Assembly: GCA_963789185.1 (NCBI GenBank)
Contig: CAWBJU010000020.1
Location: forward strand, 47,304-111,303
Length of the DNA: 64,000 nucleotides
Direction: 5' to 3'
From: an uncultured Acidobacteriota bacterium
GTDB taxonomy: Bacteria; Acidobacteriota; Blastocatellia; Pyrinomonadales; Pyrinomonadaceae
Position numbers and translations under genes: made by a program. The notes under the pieces are model-generated. The model saw only the letters and a program-made list of their open reading frames with translations. It did not search any database and was not told the DNA's origin. The stretch's first letter is position 1; every line of letters begins with the position of its first letter. Positions 15,461 to 26,352 of this stretch are shown here, one piece after another.

Positions 15461-15901
15461 TCAGAGAGAAAGGTTGAGACGGGAGCCGCCCTTGATGAGG
15501 TACTGGTCTCCTACGGCATCCGTGGATCCTTCGACGTCTTTTAAAAAGCTGATATTAAGCGTTGACCTATCGTTGTAATTTCCAGCCTGCATATGCGTGC
15601 CTGGTACGGTAAACACGTAATTCTGCAACTTGACGGTCAAGATTCGAGCTGATACGTCATACGTTACCTCCATCTCATAACCATGTGTCGTGCTACGGGC
15701 ATTTCCTTTAGACCGCCAAGTACGATTACGCGCATCATACTTGGTATCAAGGTCAAACTGTATCAGGCTCCATCTCTGTGTAGCGCCACCCGCCTTTGTA
15801 TATTGGAGATCAATTCTGCCTACCGCCTTGATGCCAGGCACACGATTGCTCTCATCCGTTGAATCCGACGATTCCAATTCTTTTTGTTGTGAGTTTTCCA
15901 T
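15461..15901 (-). CDS. Hypothetical protein, probably beta-rich (orphan, AT-rich islet)
   Basis: The ATG at 15901 (MENSQQKE...) is preceded by GGAGGAG. No family recognised. Confidence 0.5.
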   Translation of the reverse strand: MENSQQKELESSDSTDESNRVPGIKAVGRIDLQYTKAGGATQRWSLIQFDLDTKYDARNRTWRSKGNARSTTHGYEMEVTYDVSARILTVKLQNYVFTVPGTHMQAGNYNDRSTLNISFLKDVEGSTDAVGDQYLIKGGSRLNLSL

Positions 15902-16343
15902 AGCTTCTCCTCCGCGTTTCGTTCTAGAAAGCACTTCTATTTATATGACAACATTTCATGCACAGCAACGAATTGGCGGGGGCAAGAGCAGACTCTGTTG
16001 CGATGCTATCGTTGCCAATGATTAGCATATATATGATGCGCGACATGAGCGGTTTCGTCCGCCAGCACAGCTAACGTTCCCAAGAATAGTCGATGGCTGA
16101 CTCTAAAAATCCTTATGTCAATAGAAACTAATGATACTAGATTGATTCCCCGTCACGATCAGTAGCTTAACCTGTCCTCTCCGAACTTCCGGCAAGGCTT
16201 GAGTTCCAATTTGCACTTCCGGCAATGTAATGGTTCCAAAACACGAATCGTAGACAAGGTGGAGATGCGAACTCTCTCGGTTTTGATTGAACTTGCGGCA
16301 AGTAACTGCTTCCAGCGGCGCAAAGAATTGGTTCAAGTCACAA

Positions 16344-18168: not shown

Positions 18169-19092
18169 CTAATTGCCGCTCAAATAATCAGCGACAGCTT
18201 GAGAGATCGGCTGGCCCGTCTGCGATTCGTAGTAGCTGAACGCGGGGCTGGGGTTTACCTCGAAACAGTAGACGTAGTTCTCGGGTGTGATCTTCAGATC
18301 GATACCGGCGAAAGCGAGACCAAGTCCGGCCGATAGCTTCACGCACATCTCTGCCAGGTCGTCAGCTAATTCGACAGGACGGAGATCTGCATGGTCTCCG
18401 CTTTGACGATGGGCGTAACGATAGTCGGTCGCGTCGGTGTTGATTGCGGTTGCGAAAACTTTCTCGCCGACTGTGTGAACACGCACATTCGTCCCTTCGA
18501 CAAAGGCCTGAAACTGAGTTGGGCACCAGCGAATGTTGTCGATGCGCGTCATGTCGTCGTCAGTCAACGTTTGCACGATCGAACGCACGCCGCTGATCGA
18601 TTTGTAAATAACTCGGCCGTGACGAGCGCGAAACGCACGCACCAAATCAGGGTCGTTGGTGATTAAAGTTTCCGGAACTTCGAAGCCGTAGCGCCTGATT
18701 AGCTGCGCCTGGTAAGGCTTGGAAAAGTTTGACCCCATCGGCGCAACGCGATTCACGACGCGTGCGGGACTGATCTCGGCCCAACGAGTCAACGTCTCAA
18801 ACAAGTTGCAGCAAAACTTCAGCTCGGGCGCGTCGGCCGGAGCGTCTTGCAACTCGGGCAGGAAGTGGTAGTCCATCAACCGCGTGAAAACGCCTGTGAA
18901 CTCGTCGACCGAATAGCTGTCGCCGTTCAGTTGCAGCTTGCCGCTTGGCTTTCCGCCTTGAATGTCCAGCGACATCTTCATGCTGGCAAACTTTCGCTGG
19001 TTCAAGACGACGTAACGCGTGCCATTGCCGTCGAGTGCGTCACGCACGAGGGCCATCGGTGTTTCAGTAGGAATGCCACAAAGGAGAATCAT
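18169..19092 (-). CDS. ATP-grasp ligase, RimK / MvdC-MvdD (peptide-modifying) style
   Basis: C-terminal ATP-grasp signature: RVIYKSISG, FQAFVEGTNVRVHTVGEKVFATAI, DYRY, LAFAGIDLKITPENYVYCFEVNPSPAF (Mg-binding E and N present). From memory it resembles microviridin ligases (MdnB/MdnC) in layout. Confidence 0.8.
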   Translation of the reverse strand: MILLCGIPTETPMALVRDALDGNGTRYVVLNQRKFASMKMSLDIQGGKPSGKLQLNGDSYSVDEFTGVFTRLMDYHFLPELQDAPADAPELKFCCNLFETLTRWAEISPARVVNRVAPMGSNFSKPYQAQLIRRYGFEVPETLITNDPDLVRAFRARHGRVIYKSISGVRSIVQTLTDDDMTRIDNIRWCPTQFQAFVEGTNVRVHTVGEKVFATAINTDATDYRYAHRQSGDHADLRPVELADDLAEMCVKLSAGLGLAFAGIDLKITPENYVYCFEVNPSPAFSYYESQTGQPISQAVADYLSGN

Positions 19093-19844
19093 GAGTTGCT
19101 CCGCTTCCGATTCACATAGAGTTGTCGCGCAAGTTCATTGAGTAGCGCTTCACCGCCAAGACGCAGATCTGGCATTGGCGTCGCGCCGGCGAAGGTCCAT
19201 AAGCGGTGGGACTGGCCCAAGGTCAGTTCGATCCCCAGCAGTCGATTTTGCGCGAGACGCGCGAGCGCTTTGCAGGCATCGGCGATGTGCGGCGGCAGGG
19301 TTGGACCAAACACGTGGTCGCCCAACACGATCGCCATTGTCGTGGGTGTGCCCTCGGGAACAATGCGTCGAAGATGTTTCGTTTCGTCGATGTCGTCGTG
19401 GCTGGATTGACTGTATGTGGCGGTGGGAAGTCCTGACTGCGCGGCCATCCATACCCACTCGGAAACGTGACGCCACGCTCCCGACAAACCCTGCGACTGA
19501 ACGCCGTTGAAGATCGGCGTGGGAAGTGTTTTCAGCCAGCTCATAAACAGCGCCGTGTATTCCTGCTGCGCGTACTCGAAATCGGGCGTGCCCGCGAGAT
19601 GTTGCAATGGAACATGCGTGAGCCGGTTGACGACACCATTCACGTATCGATTGTCGATAACGCGTCCGTCGGCAAGTGTGACATTGAAGTTAGCGCCATC
19701 GACTCCGACTGTGTGTTCCCAACGCGCGCTCGTCGTCAACATTTCAGCCGTGACCAATTCAAACGGTTGAAGTCCACGCGCACGCAAACCGTGGAAAGCC
19801 CAAAGTGCGGACGCATCGTGAGCAGAGCAGATCATTAACCACAT
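19089..19844 (-). CDS. Truncated ATP-grasp paralogue that looks catalytically dead
   Basis: The N-terminal region and C-terminal block (LLGIELTLGQSHRLWTFAGATPMPDL) align with 18169-19092 (FAGIDLKITPENYVYCFEVNPSPAF). The central nucleotide-binding part is missing and the E/N metal ligands are replaced by A/A. AGGAG Shine-Dalgarno present; ATGA overlap with the next gene. Confidence 0.6.
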   Translation of the reverse strand: MWLMICSAHDASALWAFHGLRARGLQPFELVTAEMLTTSARWEHTVGVDGANFNVTLADGRVIDNRYVNGVVNRLTHVPLQHLAGTPDFEYAQQEYTALFMSWLKTLPTPIFNGVQSQGLSGAWRHVSEWVWMAAQSGLPTATYSQSSHDDIDETKHLRRIVPEGTPTTMAIVLGDHVFGPTLPPHIADACKALARLAQNRLLGIELTLGQSHRLWTFAGATPMPDLRLGGEALLNELARQLYVNRKRSNS

Positions 19845-19856
19845 ATGTCTCCTAAA

Positions 19857-19895
19857 GTCCGTGTTTCCGATGCAGGGACGTACGGAAACACGGAC
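19857..19895 (-). promoter_or_regulatory. Perfect 13-bp hairpin between the K/E-repeat gene and the ATP-grasp genes (possible attenuator or RNA-stability element)
   Basis: GTCCGTGTTTCCG (19857-19869) pairs with CGGAAACACGGAC (19883-19895) around a 13-nt loop. On the mRNA it is followed by only UUU and then AGGAG-ACAT-ATG, so it is not a full terminator. Confidence 0.5.
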
Positions 19896-19917
19896 TCAGA
19901 ATAGTAGTTACAAAGCG

Positions 19918-20628
19918 CTACTTCGGTTTCTTCTTGTCATCTGGCTTGACTTCGTCACCAGCGACGTCCGGTTCGCCTTTCAACGCGCCTGTAGTGAGAT
20001 CAGGGCGAAGGTCGACGCCGATGAAGTGTGTGAGTCTCTCAACTGCGTCTTCGAGTTCGCGGATACGATCCTCGGGGTTGCCGACGCCTTTGAACAATCG
20101 GGTACCGGGATCCAGCTTGGTCTCTGCGCTGGGTTTTTCAAATTCGGATTTGAATTGGAACTTTTCGGGGAATTCTTTCTCAGGCTTGATTTTCTCGATC
20201 TGGTATTTCTCGAACTCCTTCTCGGGTTTGATCTTTTCGATCTCCTTGTGAAGCTTGTCCGGAAATTCTTTCTCGGGCTTGATCTTCTCCAGTTCCTTCT
20301 GCTTCAACTCTTCCGGCTTCGGCGCAGCGGCCGCTCCTTCTTCGGGCTTTTCGGCGCGGAAAACGATCCCGGGGTCAAAGCCGGGGCCTTCGACGATCTC
20401 CTTGCTGGGCTTCTCCAGGTGCTTCTCACGTTCCTTGAAATCCTTGATCCGTTCCTTGATTTCAATCTTCTCAAGTTTTTCGTGCTTCTCGATCTTTAAC
20501 TCCTTGTACTCCTTGATCTCACGCTTTTCGGGTTTTTCCTTGATCTCGATCTTGAGTTCCTTCTCAGGCTTGATCTTCTCGATCTGCTCCTTTTCGAGCT
20601 TCTTTTCGAAATCTTTGTTCTTACTCAT
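19918..20628 (-). CDS. Lys/Glu-rich repeat protein (EKIKPEKE repeats) with a non-repetitive C-terminal domain
   Basis: Supported by an AAGGAG Shine-Dalgarno 7 nt upstream and a sigma-54 promoter. The motif EKIKPEKE(F/L) occurs 4 times, with many KPEKE/EKPEK variants. The tail reads ...RIRELEDAVERLTHFIGVDLRPDLTTGALKGE.... The plus-strand ORFs over the same DNA are mirror images of the repeat. Confidence 0.75.
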   Translation of the reverse strand: MSKNKDFEKKLEKEQIEKIKPEKELKIEIKEKPEKREIKEYKELKIEKHEKLEKIEIKERIKDFKEREKHLEKPSKEIVEGPGFDPGIVFRAEKPEEGAAAAPKPEELKQKELEKIKPEKEFPDKLHKEIEKIKPEKEFEKYQIEKIKPEKEFPEKFQFKSEFEKPSAETKLDPGTRLFKGVGNPEDRIRELEDAVERLTHFIGVDLRPDLTTGALKGEPDVAGDEVKPDDKKKPK

Positions 20629-20687
20629 GAAACTAACTCCTTGTGTGGGTGAAGTGAGTGGTTGTCTGTGTCAGGTGCGATCACTCG

Positions 20688-20702
20688 GCAAGGAATGTGC
20701 CA
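20688..20702 (-). promoter_or_regulatory. Sigma-54 (-24/-12) promoter of the K/E-repeat / ATP-grasp unit
   Basis: The minus strand reads TGGCAC-ATTCC-TTGC (preceded by C, which is outside this span). This matches the TGGCAC-N5-TTGC consensus exactly. It lies about 60 nt upstream of the ATG at 20628. Confidence 0.7.
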
Positions 20703-20808
20703 GCACAAAAGGCGCAGACGGGTGGGGTTTTCTGACTGTTTTATGACTGAGGGACGAACAGAACTGTAGACAGCCGGAGACACTCGCTATCCGATCGGTT
20801 TCAGTCTT

Positions 20809-20846
20809 AGAAAAAGAAAAACACCCGGGACGTGAATCCCGGGTGT
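20809..20846 (-). terminator. Intrinsic terminator after pilC
   Basis: The minus strand reads ACACCCGGGA-TTCACG-TCCCGGGTGT (10-bp stem) followed by TTTTCTTTTTCT. It lies 43 nt after the pilC stop. Confidence 0.8.
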
Positions 20847-20888
20847 TTGTCATAATGATTATTTTTGTCTCACGACGCTAATTAGTGT

Positions 20889-22118
20889 TTAGTGACCTGC
20901 CGAGAGTTTGCCGATCAGCGTGAACAACGGCAGGTACATCGCGATAACGATCGAACCGATCGTGACGCCGAGAAAACCGATCAGCAACGGTTCGATCAAG
21001 GTCAGCAGGTTGGCGATCGCGGAATCGACTTCGGCTTCATAGAAATCAGCGATCTTGCCGAGCATCGCGTCGAGCGCACCTGTTTGTTCGCCGATGCCGA
21101 CCATCTGCGCCACCATGTGCGGAAATACTTCTGTGGCCTTTAGCGGATCGACGAAGCTTTCACCGCGCTCAACCGCGCTGCGAACCTTCGTAATCGCCTC
21201 TTCGATGATCACGTTACCTGAAGTTTTCGCCGTAATGTCGAGCGATTGCAGGATTGGGACACCAGACGAAAGGAGCGTCGAAAGCGTACGCGAGAAGCGA
21301 GCAACGGATATTTTACGGAAGATGTCACCCAGGACCGGGATCTTGAGCAGGATGCGGTCGATGATTTTGTGGCCGCTCGGAGTTTTGTAATAGAACTTTA
21401 TAGCGACGCCGGTCCCGATCACGCTCGCCAGTATTATCAGCCCTCCCCAACCAGCAAGAAAGTTGCTGATGCCGACCACGATTCTCGTCGGCAACGGCAA
21501 TTGCTCACCTGGTCCGAGCAAACCAAGGAAGATGTTCTGAAACTGCGGGATCACTACCACCATGATCACCGCAACAGCGACGATTGCGAGCACGATCACC
21601 GCGGATGGATAAATCAACGCCGAGATAATGTCGCGTTTTAACTTGACGATCTTCTCGATGAAGGTCGACAAACGTTGCAGAATCAAGTCGAGAATACCGC
21701 CGGTTTCTCCCGCTTCGACCATGTTCGCATAAAGCTGATCGAACACGCGCGGATGGCGGGCCATAGCAGCCGCCAGCGTCGAGCCTTCTTCGACGTCCTG
21801 CCGCACCTGAAGGAGAATCTGCTGAAAGTACTTGTTGTCCTGTTGTTGGGCCAGGATTTCGAGACACTGAACGAGCGGCAAACCGGCGTCGATCATCACC
21901 GAAAACTGGCGCGTGAAGACCGACAGGTCTTTGGATTTAACCTTCTTGCGGTTGCCGATCTTGGGAATTCCGATTTCGCGTCCCTTTTCTTTGACAGAAG
22001 TCAGCGTCACTTGTTCGCGGCGCAGGATCTGTCTCAGGGCCTCGCGATTGTCGGCAACACGTTCGCCGACAACGATCTCGTTCAGTTTGTTGCGTCCTTT
22101 AAAGACGTACGTTGGCAT
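20889..22118 (-). CDS. pilC: Type IV pilus platform protein PilC (GspF family)
   Basis: Two GspF-type repeats, three TM helices, typical length, and position after pilT. Confidence 0.9.
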   Translation of the reverse strand: MPTYVFKGRNKLNEIVVGERVADNREALRQILRREQVTLTSVKEKGREIGIPKIGNRKKVKSKDLSVFTRQFSVMIDAGLPLVQCLEILAQQQDNKYFQQILLQVRQDVEEGSTLAAAMARHPRVFDQLYANMVEAGETGGILDLILQRLSTFIEKIVKLKRDIISALIYPSAVIVLAIVAVAVIMVVVIPQFQNIFLGLLGPGEQLPLPTRIVVGISNFLAGWGGLIILASVIGTGVAIKFYYKTPSGHKIIDRILLKIPVLGDIFRKISVARFSRTLSTLLSSGVPILQSLDITAKTSGNVIIEEAITKVRSAVERGESFVDPLKATEVFPHMVAQMVGIGEQTGALDAMLGKIADFYEAEVDSAIANLLTLIEPLLIGFLGVTIGSIVIAMYLPLFTLIGKLSAGH

Positions 22119-22142: not shown

Positions 22143-23318
22143 TTATCTTACGTTTGGTCTTTGACCAACCGGTCGGGGTTGAGCATAAGGACTCGCGTGC
22201 GGTTTCCCGTTGTTGGTATTAACGCCGGCGCCGCGATCGATCAGCTCGCGCAGTTCGTCCACATTCGACGAACGCTGCAAGGCAGTGTCCATACTGATAT
22301 GGCGCTTGTGATAGAGAGTGGCCAGTGCCTGATTGAAGGTCTGCATTCCGTACTTGTCCTGACCGGTCTGCATCATCGAGTAGATCTGGTGGACCTTGTC
22401 TTCGCGGATCAGGTTACGGATAGCACCGTTGGGAACCAGAATTTCAAGGGCCATCGCGCGTCCACTTCCTTCCGCGCGTGGCAGTAATGCCTGACACAGA
22501 ATGCCCTCGAGCACGAGCGAGAGTTGCGCTCGAATCTGGGCCTGCTGGTCAGCCGGAAACACATCGATGATACGGTTGATCGTCGACGACGCTGAGTTCG
22601 TGTGCAGAGTTGCAAGCGTCAGGTGGCCCGTCTCCGCGATACGCAGTGCTGACTCGATCGTTTCGAGGTCACGCATTTCGCCGACGAGCACGACGTCAGG
22701 GTCCTGACGAAGCGCGGTGCGTAGCGCAGCGGCGAAACCGTGGGTATCGGCATTCACCTCGCGCTGGTTGATAAGACAGCCTTTGTGATTGTGAAGAAAC
22801 TCGATCGGATCTTCGATCGTCAGAATGTGCTCGTGACGGTCGCGATTGATCTTGTCGATCATGGCGGCGAGCGTGGTTGATTTTCCCGACCCGGTTGGAC
22901 CAGTGACGAGGATCAGGCCGCGCGGCTTGTTGCACAGTTCTTTGACCACCGCGGGCAGTCCTAACTCTTCGAATGGCTTAATCTCATAAGGAATGGCACG
23001 GAAGACCGCACCAACCGCGCCGCGCTGGTTGAAGAGATTCGCTCGGAAACGCGACAGGCCTTTGACGCCGAAGGAGAAATCGAGCTCCAGGTTTTCCTCG
23101 AAACGATGCTTCTGCGCGTCGGTCAACACCGAGTAAGCGAGTTGCTTGGTGTCGGCCGAAGTCAGGACCCGATACGACTCGAGTGGACGGAGATGTCCGT
23201 CCACTCGAACCTGTGGGGGGGAGCCCGTGGTGATGTGCAGGTCCGAGCCGCCGACCTCCGAGAGCTTTCTCAGCAGTTCGGACAAAGAGATTTGAGGAAC
23301 GGTTTCGTTCAGTCGCAT
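22143..23318 (-). CDS. pilT: Type IV pilus retraction ATPase PilT
   Basis: SDLHITTGSPPQVRVDG, Walker A GPTGSGKST, and the pattern HLTLATLHTNSA. It carries an extra Gly/Pro/Asn-rich C-terminal tail of about 35 aa. Confidence 0.9.
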   Translation of the reverse strand: MRLNETVPQISLSELLRKLSEVGGSDLHITTGSPPQVRVDGHLRPLESYRVLTSADTKQLAYSVLTDAQKHRFEENLELDFSFGVKGLSRFRANLFNQRGAVGAVFRAIPYEIKPFEELGLPAVVKELCNKPRGLILVTGPTGSGKSTTLAAMIDKINRDRHEHILTIEDPIEFLHNHKGCLINQREVNADTHGFAAALRTALRQDPDVVLVGEMRDLETIESALRIAETGHLTLATLHTNSASSTINRIIDVFPADQQAQIRAQLSLVLEGILCQALLPRAEGSGRAMALEILVPNGAIRNLIREDKVHQIYSMMQTGQDKYGMQTFNQALATLYHKRHISMDTALQRSSNVDELRELIDRGAGVNTNNGKPHASPYAQPRPVGQRPNVR

Positions 23319-23360: not shown

Positions 23361-24389
23361 TTACTCCTTGCCGCCCTCTGATTTAGCGCGCAACGACTGG
23401 ATGAAGCGTTCTGCTTCGACCGTCATGCGTTCCGCGTATTCAACCGGCGATTCCGTGGTCAGTCCGTAAACGCGGCCATCAGATTCCGTGAAATAGAAGG
23501 TCCACGCCTTTTCGGGTGTGAGCGCATCCTTTGGAGTGCGGCCCGTCACGACGAAAACGCGAGCGCCATTAACTTCGCGGATGAAGTCATTAACTACCCA
23601 GCCACCGTTGTTGACCATCTTGTCGATCACGATTCGTTTCAGATCGGCAACCGGAACACCGGCGAGCATCTTTTTCTGTTCGCGCTGGGTCAGGAAGATC
23701 GGATTCGGACGGCTGAGAGCCACGACTGACAGGTTCATCTGACCCGGCAGTTTGGGTGCACTGCTGTTCGGCGCGATCACCGGACGGACTGCGTTAACAA
23801 CACGCGGTCTCGTAGCGCTAACCGCAGCGTGCGCTGAAACTGTCGCGTTAGCAGGGATCGCTGGTGCGGCGTTAGCAGCCATCGCAGGAGCTACGGCAAC
23901 AGGCGTCGCTGGCGCTACGGCAACAGGCGTAACAGGCGCCTCGGCAGGAATCGCGATTGGTTCAGTGATTGAACGCATCGACGGTCTCGTGGCTTGGGCT
24001 GCGGTCACGTCAGTCTGGATCGTGGCCGGCGCTCTCATTCCACGCGGCGGCAGATCGTTGAACGACAACGAAGTGGCCTTTGCGGGCATTGCAGGCGAAG
24101 CTGGTCCGGCAACGACTGATAGATCGCCAGTCTCAACATTCTGCGGTAAGGCTGTCGCGAGATTCTGCGGTATAGCCATCATCGCGTTGCGACGCGCCAA
24201 TTCTTCCGCCGCACGCCTCGCTCGCAAACGCGCGCGATACCGTCGCCACCAGGCACGTGAACGGTAACGTTTCGACTTCTTCTTCGTTATTTGTGTGCTC
24301 TGCCTGATTCCGTGCGCTGAGTTTGCAAACGGCAGCATTACGCCCACGGAGAGCAGCAGCACCAGCGTTATTGCAATTGTTCTTAACAT
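23361..24389 (-). CDS. Hypothetical secreted protein with a basic stretch and Ala/Pro-rich repeats, embedded in the pilB-pilT operon
   Basis: Signal peptide MLRTIAITLVLLLSVGVMLPFANSA, basic stretch KKKSKRYRSRAWWRRYRARLRARR, repeat APATPVAVAPATPVAVAP, and a globular C-terminus. Gaps of 18 nt and 42 nt to pilB and pilT. Confidence 0.6.
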   Translation of the reverse strand: MLRTIAITLVLLLSVGVMLPFANSAHGIRQSTQITKKKSKRYRSRAWWRRYRARLRARRAAEELARRNAMMAIPQNLATALPQNVETGDLSVVAGPASPAMPAKATSLSFNDLPPRGMRAPATIQTDVTAAQATRPSMRSITEPIAIPAEAPVTPVAVAPATPVAVAPAMAANAAPAIPANATVSAHAAVSATRPRVVNAVRPVIAPNSSAPKLPGQMNLSVVALSRPNPIFLTQREQKKMLAGVPVADLKRIVIDKMVNNGGWVVNDFIREVNGARVFVVTGRTPKDALTPEKAWTFYFTESDGRVYGLTTESPVEYAERMTVEAERFIQSLRAKSEGGKE

Positions 24390-24407: not shown

Positions 24408-26207
24408 TTAGGCGACCGTTTCGCGAACGACTTCTTCGATCGTTGTCACGCCTTCGCGAATCTTGTACAGACCCGATTCGCGCAACGTGATCATGCCGTC
24501 GTCGACCGCCTTCTTCCTCAATTCAAGTGCGGAGGCACCGATCAGGATCAACTCGCGGATCTCGTCGGTGATTTCCAACACTTCGTAAAGTCCGATACGC
24601 CCTTTGTAACCGGTATTGTTACAGGTCGAACAACCTTTGCCTTTGTAGGTCTTGATCGACTTAGCTTCGTCAGCCGAGAAGCCAACTTCAACCAGGGCCT
24701 CCATCGGGGTCTGTTGTTCCTGTTTACAGTCCTTACAAACGCGACGAATCAGACGCTGAGCCTGGATGAGGTTCACGCTAGTGGCGACAAGGAAGGGTTC
24801 GATGCCCATGTTCATAAGGCGGGAAATGGTTGAGGGAGCATCGTTGGTGTGAAGGGTGGAGAGTACGAGGTGTCCGGTGAGCGCGGCCTTGATGCCGATT
24901 TCCGCGGTTTCGAAGTCGCGGATTTCGCCGACGAGAACAATGTTCGGGTCTTGCCGCAGAAACGCTCTAAGCGCTGCGGCGAAGTTCAATCCGATCTGCT
25001 CTTTCATCTGCACCTGGTTGATGCCCATCAGGTTGAACTCGACCGGGTCCTCGGCGGTCATGATGTTCGTATCGACCGTGTTCAAAGATTGGAGCGCAGA
25101 GTAGAGCGTGTTTGTCTTACCGCTTCCGGTTGGTCCAGTCACCAGGACCATGCCGTAAGGCTTCGAGATATTGCGTTTGAACTTGGTCAACGACTCAGGC
25201 TCGAAACCGAGCTTTGTCATGTCGAGCATCAGGTTCTGTTTGTCCAACAAACGCAGCACGACTTTCTCGCCAAACAACGTCGGCAAGGTCGAGACACGAA
25301 AGTCGAGTTCGCGCGAACGCGCGTCGACCTTCACTTTGATCTTGATGCGGCCGTCCTGGGGGAGACGCTTTTCTGAAATGTCGAGCTTCGACATGATCTT
25401 GATGCGTGAGATCAACGCGTCGCGCATCTTCAGCGGTGGATGCATCACGTCGTAGAGCACGCCGTCGATTCGGAAACGGATGCGCAGCTCTTTCTCGTAA
25501 GGTTCGACGTGAATGTCGGAAGCACCGCGGCGAAGCGCGTCAACCAGCAACACGTTCACGAGCCGGACCACGGGCGCGTCCTCGCTCATGCGCGACAATG
25601 TCGAGAGATCGATCTCTTCGTTGTCTTCGAGTACTTCTACGTCCTCGGCGTCGCCAGGTGTGAAGTCGATGCTGTCGAGCGAAACTAGATCGGCGTGTGT
25701 GATCGAGCCGTTGGAACCATTCGATCCGTTGCGTGACTCGACAGTGACTTCCTCGATGGTCGCGGCGAGTTCGATCTCGCGCGAAGTTCCGTAGTACTTC
25801 GCGATCGCCTGCTGAACGCTGCCTTCGGCAACTACAACCGGTTCGACGTTCAAGCCAGTCATGAACTTGACGTCGTCCATCGCGAAGACATTCGTCGGGT
25901 CGACCATTGCGAGTGTCAGCGTGGCGCCGACGCGCGAGAGCGGCAGGACGCAATGTTTCTGCGCGACTTCCTGGGGAATGAGGCGAAGCACCGCGGAGTC
26001 GATGTTGAAGAGATCGAGGTTGACTGATGGAATGCCGTATTGCCTTGAGAGTACGGCGGTGATCATGTCATCGCTGACCAGACCCAGTTTGACGAGATTG
26101 AAGCCGAGACGGCCGCCATGCTCGCGTTGATAGTCGAGGGCCTCTCTCAGTTTTTGGGGACTAATTAAATTTTCGCGGACGAGAAGTTCGCCTAATTTGG
26201 CTGACAT
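24408..26207 (-). CDS. pilB: Type IV pilus assembly ATPase PilB (GspE family)
   Basis: From the ATG at 26207 the protein starts MSAKLGELLVRENLISPQKLREALDYQ (GspE N-terminal domain). Walker A GPTGSGKTNT; zinc motif CKDCK...CSTCNNTGYKGR. The 39 codons upstream in the ORF track overlap the promoter. Confidence 0.9.
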   Translation of the reverse strand: MSAKLGELLVRENLISPQKLREALDYQREHGGRLGFNLVKLGLVSDDMITAVLSRQYGIPSVNLDLFNIDSAVLRLIPQEVAQKHCVLPLSRVGATLTLAMVDPTNVFAMDDVKFMTGLNVEPVVVAEGSVQQAIAKYYGTSREIELAATIEEVTVESRNGSNGSNGSITHADLVSLDSIDFTPGDAEDVEVLEDNEEIDLSTLSRMSEDAPVVRLVNVLLVDALRRGASDIHVEPYEKELRIRFRIDGVLYDVMHPPLKMRDALISRIKIMSKLDISEKRLPQDGRIKIKVKVDARSRELDFRVSTLPTLFGEKVVLRLLDKQNLMLDMTKLGFEPESLTKFKRNISKPYGMVLVTGPTGSGKTNTLYSALQSLNTVDTNIMTAEDPVEFNLMGINQVQMKEQIGLNFAAALRAFLRQDPNIVLVGEIRDFETAEIGIKAALTGHLVLSTLHTNDAPSTISRLMNMGIEPFLVATSVNLIQAQRLIRRVCKDCKQEQQTPMEALVEVGFSADEAKSIKTYKGKGCSTCNNTGYKGRIGLYEVLEITDEIRELILIGASALELRKKAVDDGMITLRESGLYKIREGVTTIEEVVRETVA

Positions 26208-26322
26208 TTGTGACTCTTGACCTAGCGCGACCGCTACCGGATCTTGGAAAGGATGGAGGCGCCGAAACGGCGCGAGGCATGCTCTACTCAGACAACGATG
26301 AGACCAACATCGTTGTGCACTC

Positions 26323-26352
26323 ATAGTACTGTTTGAACATCAGGAGTGTCAA
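26323..26352 (-). promoter_or_regulatory. Candidate sigma-70 promoter of the pilB operon
   Basis: The minus strand reads TTGACA-N18-TACTAT. It would give a leader of about 110 nt containing two short hairpins (CAACGATG...CATCGTTG and GCGCCG...CGGCGC). Confidence 0.45.

Follow-up and report, generated by a model that had tools for sequence, protein, structure and literature searches.

A lysine/glutamate-repeat protein with a conserved C-terminal module as a candidate substrate of an adjacent graspetide-type ATP-grasp ligase and its pseudo-ligase partner

Introduction

A 64,000-nucleotide stretch of DNA from an uncultured Pyrinomonadaceae bacterium (Acidobacteriota), referred to below as the window, carries on its minus strand a gene for a 236-aa protein made largely of lysine and glutamate repeats, followed by two genes related to ATP-grasp ligases. 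The locus raises the question of what a protein of such extreme composition does beside these enzymes, and whether its non-repetitive tail could be, as a preliminary description of the DNA proposed, the element by which they recognize it. We suggest that the 236-aa protein is a protein-sized graspetide-like substrate, in which the C-terminal tail would act as a follower that docks an active ligase and a pseudo-ligase and so directs the formation of Lys-Glu/Asp isopeptide links, and we give this reading a probability of about 0.55.

Results and discussion

The tail is a conserved module tied to an enzyme pair

The tail proves to be a distinct conserved module, as the preliminary description had supposed. 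A profile search of 1.84 billion cluster representatives retrieved 486 representatives (202 at E<=1e-10), in proteins of 57-872 aa and in nearly all cases at the extreme C-terminus. Thirty-five tails from genome loci in many phyla align as LExRLxxLExAVxxLxHFIxxxLRPDLxxGALxxExD, in which F, I, R, P, L and E never vary and H, D and L hardly do. No Pfam or NCBIfam model covers the module, and against PDB sequences its profile gave only chance matches to thymidylate kinase (E ~0.8) and no known leader peptide. The invariant residues are hydrophobic, Arg, Pro, Asp or Glu and include no Ser, Thr or Lys; lacking a conserved nucleophile, the motif looks like a docking site and not like a ring-forming core. 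Beyond ExD, many lineages add ...QLQKQAADAKQAKDNKDxEKxxE and the Pyrinomonadaceae add ...KPDDKKKPK, while some members stop there. The post-motif segment (AKQAKDNKDxEK or KPDDKKKPK) was therefore rejected as the universal substrate, the only Lys/acid supply common to all members being upstream of the motif, although it may be an extra site.

The association of this module with the two enzyme genes is strict. Among 37 genome loci seeded on the 250-aa neighbour gene, an ATP-grasp gene lies directly downstream of that gene in 37/37, and a module-bearing open reading frame (ORF) directly upstream in all 36 with evaluable upstream DNA, three of these ORFs carrying the variant motifs RPEV, RPSL and RPEL. 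The loci span Acidobacteriota, WOR-3, Gammaproteobacteria, Nitrospira, Nitrospinota, Chloroflexi/Dehalococcoidia, Gemmatimonadota, Verrucomicrobia, Alphaproteobacteria and Actinomycetes, and one of them has two module-bearing ORFs. Seeding on the tail gave the same picture. Look-ups from tail-bearing proteins found the trio in 3/3, with the enzyme pair of the frameshift-fragmented locus L041 inferred from unnamed gene fragments. A metagenome scan yielded 244 stretches encoding relatives, of which the best 80 were kept; among these 80, both enzymes follow the tail in 34/34 loci with at least 2.3 kb of downstream DNA and the first enzyme in 30/30 loci with 450-2300 nt, so that 64/64 evaluable loci fit with zero exceptions. 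Tail homologues without an ATP-grasp neighbour, which would speak against the link drawn in the preliminary description, were looked for in all four sets and none was found. The proposed physical docking of the enzymes by the tail rests on this co-occurrence.

An apparently intact graspetide-type ligase and a seemingly dead paralogue

The 307-aa product of the third gene resembles the graspetide macrocyclases. Its best NCBIfam matches are TIGR04187/04184/04185 (2.6e-37 for TIGR04187, ~1e-27 for MvdD/MvdC, all below the cut-offs), and in a profile search of the PDB it finds PsnB (9.7e-37), MdnC (2.5e-28), CdnC, MdnB, AMdnB and PruB at E 1e-36 to 1e-17, with RimK structures much weaker at E ~1e-8 to 1e-10. 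Residues K164, D223-Y224-R225 and E278-V-N280 are invariant in 17 orthologues, and the DYR triplet aligns with the DFR of PsnB, a motif called critical for graspetide synthetases (PMC13097080). The catalytic signature of these enzymes is thus present in full, as an ATP-binding Lys, a counterpart of DFR and a Mg-binding ExN.

The middle gene encodes a 251-aa protein that has no Pfam or NCBIfam match and for which 246 homologues were found. Its AlphaFold2 (AF2) model is confident (predicted local distance difference test, pLDDT, 88.8; predicted template modelling score, pTM, 0.85), and all top PDB matches of the model in Foldseek are the graspetide ligases PruB, MdnB, MdnC, CdnC and PsnB (E 1e-10 to 1e-7, TM 0.62-0.73, identity 9-15%). 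An hhalign comparison with the active paralogue is weak but colinear (probability 25%, E 7.6e-4); it shows the lid, the ATP lysine and the region of DYR deleted and the ExN strand replaced. The protein appears to be a catalytically dead paralogue, the residue-level equivalences being tentative. The 'ATP-grasp pair' of the preliminary description therefore holds at the level of fold, whereas one of its members looks inactive, a feature that was not visible to that reader. In a Longimicrobium metagenome-assembled genome (MAG) the two enzymes are fused into one 575-aa ORF with a Pro/His-rich linker (L026, 5995-7722); upstream of that fusion the carrier, a TIG-repeat protein, exceeds 1,800 aa. No significant PADLOC match to a known anti-phage defence system was obtained for any of the three proteins, the sole, marginal one being to the 251-aa protein (13.8 bits, E 0.0044).

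Near its C-terminus (19140-19200, minus strand) the 251-aa protein has a conserved segment, WTFAGATPMPDLRLGGEAL, that resembles the carrier tail THFIGVDLRPDLTTGALKGE (F.G....PDL..G.AL) and that occupies, in the profile alignment, the place of the ExN strand of the active ligase (CFEVNPSPAF). The likeness could be mimicry, shared origin or chance.

The character of the ligase also bears on an alternative in which docking would be the same and the chemistry one of addition, the ATP-grasp adding amino acids or poly-Glu to Glu side chains or to the C-terminus in the manner of RimK or TTLL, or using the invariant Glu of GALxxE as an attachment point in the carrier logic of LysX/LysW. We consider these two forms, taken together, unlikely. 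The 307-aa enzyme is detectably related to the RimK, LysX and MptN families (E 6.5e-15 to 1e-6) and to the RimK structures, and a tail with one Glu invariant across phyla, no conserved nucleophile, and loci without exporter or leader peptidase would suit such chemistry. The similarity to graspetide macrocyclases is, however, some 25 orders of magnitude better than that to RimK, and the D-Y-R motif, typical of graspetide synthetases, is invariant (PMC13097080). Addition would also leave the abundance and regular placement of Lys, equal to that of the acids, unexplained. S6 and LysW end in acidic residues, whereas the protein in the window ends in KKKPK. Membership of the RimK/LysX type was rejected on this C-terminus and on the weaker RimK matches.

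A conserved gene that assemblies tend to lose

The gene is a 236-aa ORF with an ATG start, identical in sequence to the one first described from the ORF listing, and the coordinates, the K/E repeats, the hinge and the ordinary tail (residues 178-236) given in that description all agree with it. Over residues 1-176, K (25.0%), E (24.4%), I (9.1%), P (8.5%) and F (5.7%) make up 72.7% of the sequence, and the unit EKIKPEKE[FL] occurs four times, at residues 17, 114, 131 and 145. Direct reading of the N-terminus MSKNKDFEKKLEKEQIEK found no hydrophobic segment, in keeping with the earlier statement that there is no signal peptide. The plus-strand ORFs 19861-20499, 19934-20251 and 20255-20746 exist and are S/F/L-rich, as expected of the complement of K/E codons. 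The parts of the gene are listed with the other features in Table 1.

Table 1. Positions in the window of the genes, protein segments and signals discussed in the text.
Feature	Position	Strand	Basis or remark
Carrier/substrate gene, 236-aa K/E-repeat protein with C-terminal module	19918..20628	-	ORF, orthologue alignment, composition
Block A, residues 1-80, K/E repeats without regular prolines (IEIKEKPEKRE, IEKHEKLEK)	20389..20628	-	AF2, orthologues
Gly/Ala/Pro hinge GPGFDPGIVFRAEKPEEGAAAAPKPEE, residues 81-107	20308..20388	-	Conserved in Pyrinomonadaceae
Block B, residues 108-177, three ~16-17-aa KEIEKIKPEKEFPDKxH units	20098..20307	-	Copy number varies among relatives
Amphipathic tail helix PEDRIRELEDAVERLTHFI, residues 185-203	20020..20076	-	AF2 helix 185-202, pLDDT ~75; consensus LExRLxxLExAVxxLxHFI
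Core recognition-like motif HFIGVDLRPDLTTGALKGEPD, residues 201-221	19966..20028	-	Invariant F, I, R, P, L, E
K/D-rich C-terminal end VAGDEVKPDDKKKPK, residues 222-236	19921..19965	-	Elsewhere ...AKQAKDNKDxEKxxE or absent
Shine-Dalgarno sequence AAGGAG, 9 nt 5' of the ATG at 20628	20637..20642	-	Sequence reading
251-aa pseudo-ATP-grasp, graspetide-ligase fold	19089..19844	-	AF2, Foldseek, hhalign; appears to lack lid and catalytic motifs
307-aa graspetide-type ATP-grasp ligase, apparently catalytically intact	18169..19092	-	Start overlaps upstream stop (ATGA)
Stable RNA hairpin between carrier and enzyme genes, in 73-nt spacer	19854..19897	-	-27.3 kcal/mol, z -4.4
Intrinsic-terminator-like hairpin after pilC, 13-bp stem (7 GC pairs), then T-run	20819..20848	-

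A protein of this composition, with zero matches in Pfam, NCBIfam and PADLOC, might be suspected of being a spurious or non-functional low-complexity frame, the more so because gene callers and assemblies mostly miss it: in a database of 5.8 billion proteins the Pyrinomonadaceae carrier is present only as fragments of 42-181 aa. Conservation already contradicts that view, which we regard as barely credible. The DNA of the window is ~94% identical to that of a Pyrinomonadaceae/Acidobacteriota MAG. Orthologues in nine related MAG loci, of 231-358 aa, differ in length by whole in-frame repeat units, and together with a distant stand-alone relative (P0155) they retain the start MSKNKD.EKKLEKE, block A, the hinge, the KEIEKIKPEKEFPDKxH block and the tail. 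The gene has a Shine-Dalgarno sequence, and its tail recurs across phyla in hundreds of relatives. Tandem Repeats Finder detected no DNA tandem array within the carrier gene except one 12-nt x2 match, which indicates that the peptide repeats are old and have diverged in DNA, and are not fresh products of slippage.

The short database entries are themselves explained by the repeat: long-read MAGs frameshift in the A-rich K/E-coding DNA, and short-read contigs often end there. A word-index search with the tail alone gave just two matches, fragments of 42 and 48 aa, and the idea that the tail is a separate small gene was rejected, as these trace to a frameshifted long-read MAG and to a contig end. 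Frameshifts in the K/E repeat (long-read MAGs) and contig ends (short reads) were seen in the carrier regions of L001/L008 and L005.

The Lys/acid-rich region has a regular pattern of its own

A Lys/acid-rich stretch accompanies the module throughout the family. Within 130 aa upstream of the motif, 146 of the 154 tail-bearing representatives that could be evaluated have a 30-aa segment of at least 50% K/E/D, compared with 0/120 controls; the median maximum content of such segments is 63%, and the exceptions look like miscalled or frameshifted ORFs. When residue spacing was tallied in 189 such regions (12,168 aa; K 28%, E 23%, D 7%), there emerged a regular K-[E/D]-x pattern, (K-[E/D]-x)n, which in the window takes the form of EKIKPEKEF-type repeats. 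The dipeptide KK is nearly absent (observed/expected ratio, O/E, 0.03; z -42) and the K-K spacing peaks at +3 (O/E 1.65). From K, an acid is enriched at +1 (O/E 1.9) and at +4 and +5 (1.4 and 1.6) and depleted at +3 (0.59), and from E, K is depleted at +3 and +4 (0.62 and 0.89). In the protein of the window 22 of the 51 lysines have an acid at +4, KxxxE/D being the commonest K-to-acid spacing. Similar K/D-rich patterns recur on either side of the tail motif in many members.

These figures bear on a possible likeness to E/K single alpha-helix (SAH) domains. Such domains place their salt bridges in an E-to-K register of +3/+4. Our proteins share with them the extreme K/E content, and the proline-free block A is predicted to form a long helix. 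They differ in the depletion of E-to-K at +3/+4, the near absence of KK, the acid at +1 of K, the recurrent prolines (8.5% of the repeat region) and the predicted disorder of block B, and SAH was rejected as a description of the family pattern on the E-to-K depletion, the KK ratio and the prolines. In the AF2 model of the whole protein (pTM 0.29), block A has helices at 5-29 and 33-71 with pLDDT up to 98, the proline-bearing block B is disordered (pLDDT <50), and in the tail residues 185-202 are helical and the remainder disordered. The earlier judgement that this is not a simple SAH thus stands for the family pattern and for block B and fits block A less well.

The same pattern can be set against an explanation in which the K/E protein is a scaffold, regulator or adaptor, its tail tethering variable cargo, such as proteases or TIG proteins and in the window none, to the ATP-grasp complex, its K/acid region being a mere charged spacer and the substrate of the ligase being another molecule. 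The N-terminal domains do vary while the tag and the partner genes stay constant, much as in the cargo-targeting peptides of other systems; block A is predicted helical, and no specific reactive pair is conserved. Yet a neutral spacer would need neither the avoidance of KK nor a K-[E/D] register kept across phyla, K/D-rich patterns flank the motif on both sides, the stand-alone Pyrinomonadaceae proteins keep and even expand the repeats with no cargo to tether, and the loci contain no further conserved gene as a candidate for the substrate. On balance we think this explanation improbable, to much the same degree as addition chemistry.

The module is carried by proteases and other proteins

In the Pyrinomonadaceae the K/acid-rich stretch and tail stand alone, whereas outside this family they terminate larger proteins. 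The carriers range from 171 to 1,834 aa and are often enzymes: subtilases that keep HGT and GTSxA intact, and trypsin-like/Nal1-like proteases in which GDSGS and (S/T)NFHV are likewise intact. Astacins, TIG-repeat proteins, a tyrosinase and a lectin-like protein were also found. No signal peptide-like N-terminus was found among the carriers inspected. Since the K/acid region and follower are appended to the C-termini of apparently cytoplasmic subtilases, trypsin-like proteases, astacins and TIG proteins, they suggest a general system for modifying proteins that bear this tag, of which the Pyrinomonadaceae version would be the tag alone with its repeats expanded.

Several observations concern the surroundings of these carriers. 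Directly upstream of subtilase-type carriers, six loci have a conserved ORF of ~95 aa ending ...AAYLKP..ELP (L021 2561-2833; L025 547-825; L028 3644-3961; L030 3674-3961; L031 3680-3979; L035 3641-3982), whose position and size suggest a propeptide- or inhibitor-like partner. In the stand-alone-type locus L042 (1-4544) a Peptidase_C11 gene and a TPR-CHAT (caspase-like) gene precede the trio, so that peptidases occur close by even without fusion to the module. In L017 (1946-4189) a second subtilase gene lies 5' of the module-bearing ORF; its K/E-rich stretch and LEQRLARLEAVLARL helix, without HFI..RPDL, run into another domain and may represent a module copy that has diverged or decayed.

A model for follower-directed modification

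Because a docking-like motif adjoins a K/acid region that is the sole universal source of nucleophiles and carboxylates, we propose follower-directed Lys-Glu/Asp isopeptide formation. The product of the first gene would consist of a long Lys/acid region and a C-terminal docking element, an amphipathic helix ending in HFIxxxLRPDLxxGALxxExD, which as a natural 'follower' would recruit the enzyme pair. The dead paralogue and the active ligase would work as a hetero-complex, with the former an obligate partner and possibly the docking subunit. The active ligase would then phosphorylate Glu/Asp side chains and join them to Lys in the flanking K/acid-rich region, and given the commonest spacing, KxxxE, the product would be a string of isopeptide (macrolactam) staples or cross-links.

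A number of points weigh against this model. The ATP-grasp scores 128.7 bits where 350 are required, far below the NCBIfam trusted cut-offs for known graspetide maturases, so that its chemistry could differ, and the residue-level case for a dead paralogue rests on the weak profile alignment described above. The K/acid-rich regions offer no alignable fixed Lys/acid pair, despite the enrichment at +1 and +4/+5; no single conserved pair can be named, and whatever spacing is seen in low-complexity sequence will in part reflect the repeat itself. Block A, a confidently predicted helix, would be a poor ligase substrate if it is really folded. The metagenome set consists of the 80 loci that scored best among 244, with a leaning towards soil Acidobacteriota. 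Finally, no gene beyond the trio is conserved in the loci, neither an exporter nor a leader peptidase, unlike most graspetide clusters, and the product may not be a released peptide at all.

A possible, though less probable, reading is that of protein tagging or stapling. Here the portable (K-[E/D]-x)n plus HFI..RPDL unit would mark cytoplasmic proteases and other proteins for an ATP-grasp/pseudo-ATP-grasp heterodimer, which would introduce many isopeptide bonds within or between chains. Known graspetides are serine-protease inhibitors, and on that precedent a cross-linked tail could be a built-in, enzyme-made latch or inhibitor of the serine protease to which it is fused. Alternatively, such tails could polymerize their carriers into a covalent scaffold.

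Comparison with known systems

With the microviridin (MdnA/B/C), plesiocin (PsnA/B) and chryseoviridin (CdnC) systems the present one shares a ligase closely related in sequence and structure, a substrate gene directly upstream, and a short helical element, putatively for recognition, beside a repeated region rich in potential donor and acceptor residues; the HFIxx of the tail loosely recalls the 'Phhx(1,2)h' leader signature (PMC8939145). It differs in that the recognition-like element is a C-terminal follower and not an N-terminal leader, that the 'precursor' has 170 to >1,800 aa and is often a full enzyme and not a short peptide, that the candidate core is a long K/acid low-complexity region without conserved Thr/Ser, that a pseudo-ATP-grasp would be an obligate partner, that release protease and exporter are not conserved, and that no existing precursor or maturase model reaches its cut-off. 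A classic short precursor with N-terminal leader and C-terminal core was rejected as a description of the carriers, since the motif lies at the extreme C-terminus.

Closer parallels for a large substrate exist. Corallotide is made from a ~22-kDa precursor, CorA, with five KxxxD lactams (graspetide group 15, CorA/CorB; PMC13097080), and MyxF lactamises (KxxE)n to give myxomiditide (PMC12848669). In both, the precursors are large or repetitive and an ATP-grasp makes many short-range Lys-Asp/Glu lactams, as we propose here, and KxxxE/D is the commonest K-to-acid spacing of the window protein. Their precursors, however, begin with leaders and carry discrete motifs, CorB depends on an oxygenase context and not on a dead paralogue, and the +3 spacing used by MyxF is depleted in our regions. 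Dependence of a ligase on a second protein is known from MirB/MirC (PMC13097080) and from MyxD2, which relies on the partner ATP-grasps MyxF/MyxD1 for substrate engagement (PMC12848669). MirC is a SurA-like chaperone and the partners of MyxD2 are active ligases, whereas the partner described here is a shortened, apparently inactive ATP-grasp paralogue, always adjoining the ligase and once fused to it. As to the follower, an engineered C-terminal leader functions with the graspetide synthetase ThfB and was described as unnatural (PMC13003496).

A description that fits our loci is given in the survey of Makarova et al. (2022; PMC8939145), in which branches 7/8 comprise graspetide-like ATP-grasps linked to peptidases of several unrelated families, with a truncated, inactive ATP-grasp as a further feature of branch 8. 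The survey could predict no precursor and proposed that the peptidases supply substrates. Our loci have a truncated paralogue and, in other phyla, an association with peptidases, and may belong to one of these branches; our data suggest that the peptidases themselves carry the substrate tag. The module-bearing protein may be the missing substrate of those loci. The system is best filed as a form of graspetide-type ATP-grasp modification in which recognition is C-terminal, the carriers are of protein size and often proteases, and the ligase has a pseudo-ligase as partner.

If this is correct, a substrate would be at hand for peptidase-linked ATP-grasp loci that a dedicated survey left without a predicted precursor (PMC8939145), the follower arrangement so far shown only by engineering would have a natural counterpart (PMC13003496), and graspetide chemistry would reach beyond small secreted peptides to targets of protein size, proteases among them, that appear to be cytoplasmic. 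Should the stapling reading hold, graspetide chemistry would for the first time be seen under the direction of a natural follower, and for the first time on full-size enzymes. Two unannotated families would be defined, the tail module (~490 representative clusters) and the pseudo-ATP-grasp (at least 246 homologues). Because the repeat makes assemblers and gene callers systematically lose or fragment the carrier genes, the family has been invisible to peptide-centred genome mining. A compact portable tag with a two-enzyme set would be of possible interest for protein engineering, if the chemistry is confirmed.

Transcription unit and neighbouring genes

The three genes form one unit, 20628->18169 on the minus strand, and the histidine kinase gene that follows has a promoter-like site of its own. 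None of 200 shuffles of the hairpin in the spacer was equally stable, and hairpins just as strong, though unrelated in sequence, occupy the matching position in 16 related loci, while in subtilase-type loci the carrier and enzyme genes abut. A hairpin between substrate and enzyme genes is found in many precursor-enzyme operons.

Directly upstream of the K/E gene, on the same strand, are pilB (24408-26324), pilT (22143-23318) and pilC (20889-22118), an arrangement found likewise in related Pyrinomonadaceae MAGs, and the 236-aa protein could on that ground be an accessory or structural component of a type IV pilus with the ATP-grasp genes as unrelated neighbours. We consider this highly improbable. 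The strong terminator-like hairpin directly after pilC, with its T-run, makes it appear that pilB/pilT/pilC end their own transcript, apart from the three-gene unit; pil genes accompany the trio in only 7-8 closely related loci, all within the Pyrinomonadaceae, and the trio occurs without them in Nitrospira, Chloroflexi, Gammaproteobacteria, Verrucomicrobia, Gemmatimonadota and Actinomycetes. The pilus link was rejected on terminator and synteny.

Between pilB and pilT lies a 342-aa ORF (23361-24389, minus strand) without a Pfam or NCBIfam match, with a hydrophobic N-terminus, an Arg-rich stretch and an Ala/Pro/Val repeat (PVAVAPATPVAVAPA), which may be a lineage-specific pilus-associated protein. 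A 157-aa ORF (15461-15934, minus strand) gave a non-significant match, below the cut-off, to a thiol-activated cytolysin beta-sandwich domain (E 0.049), and sits in a stretch of lower GC content, 49.5% versus ~56%.

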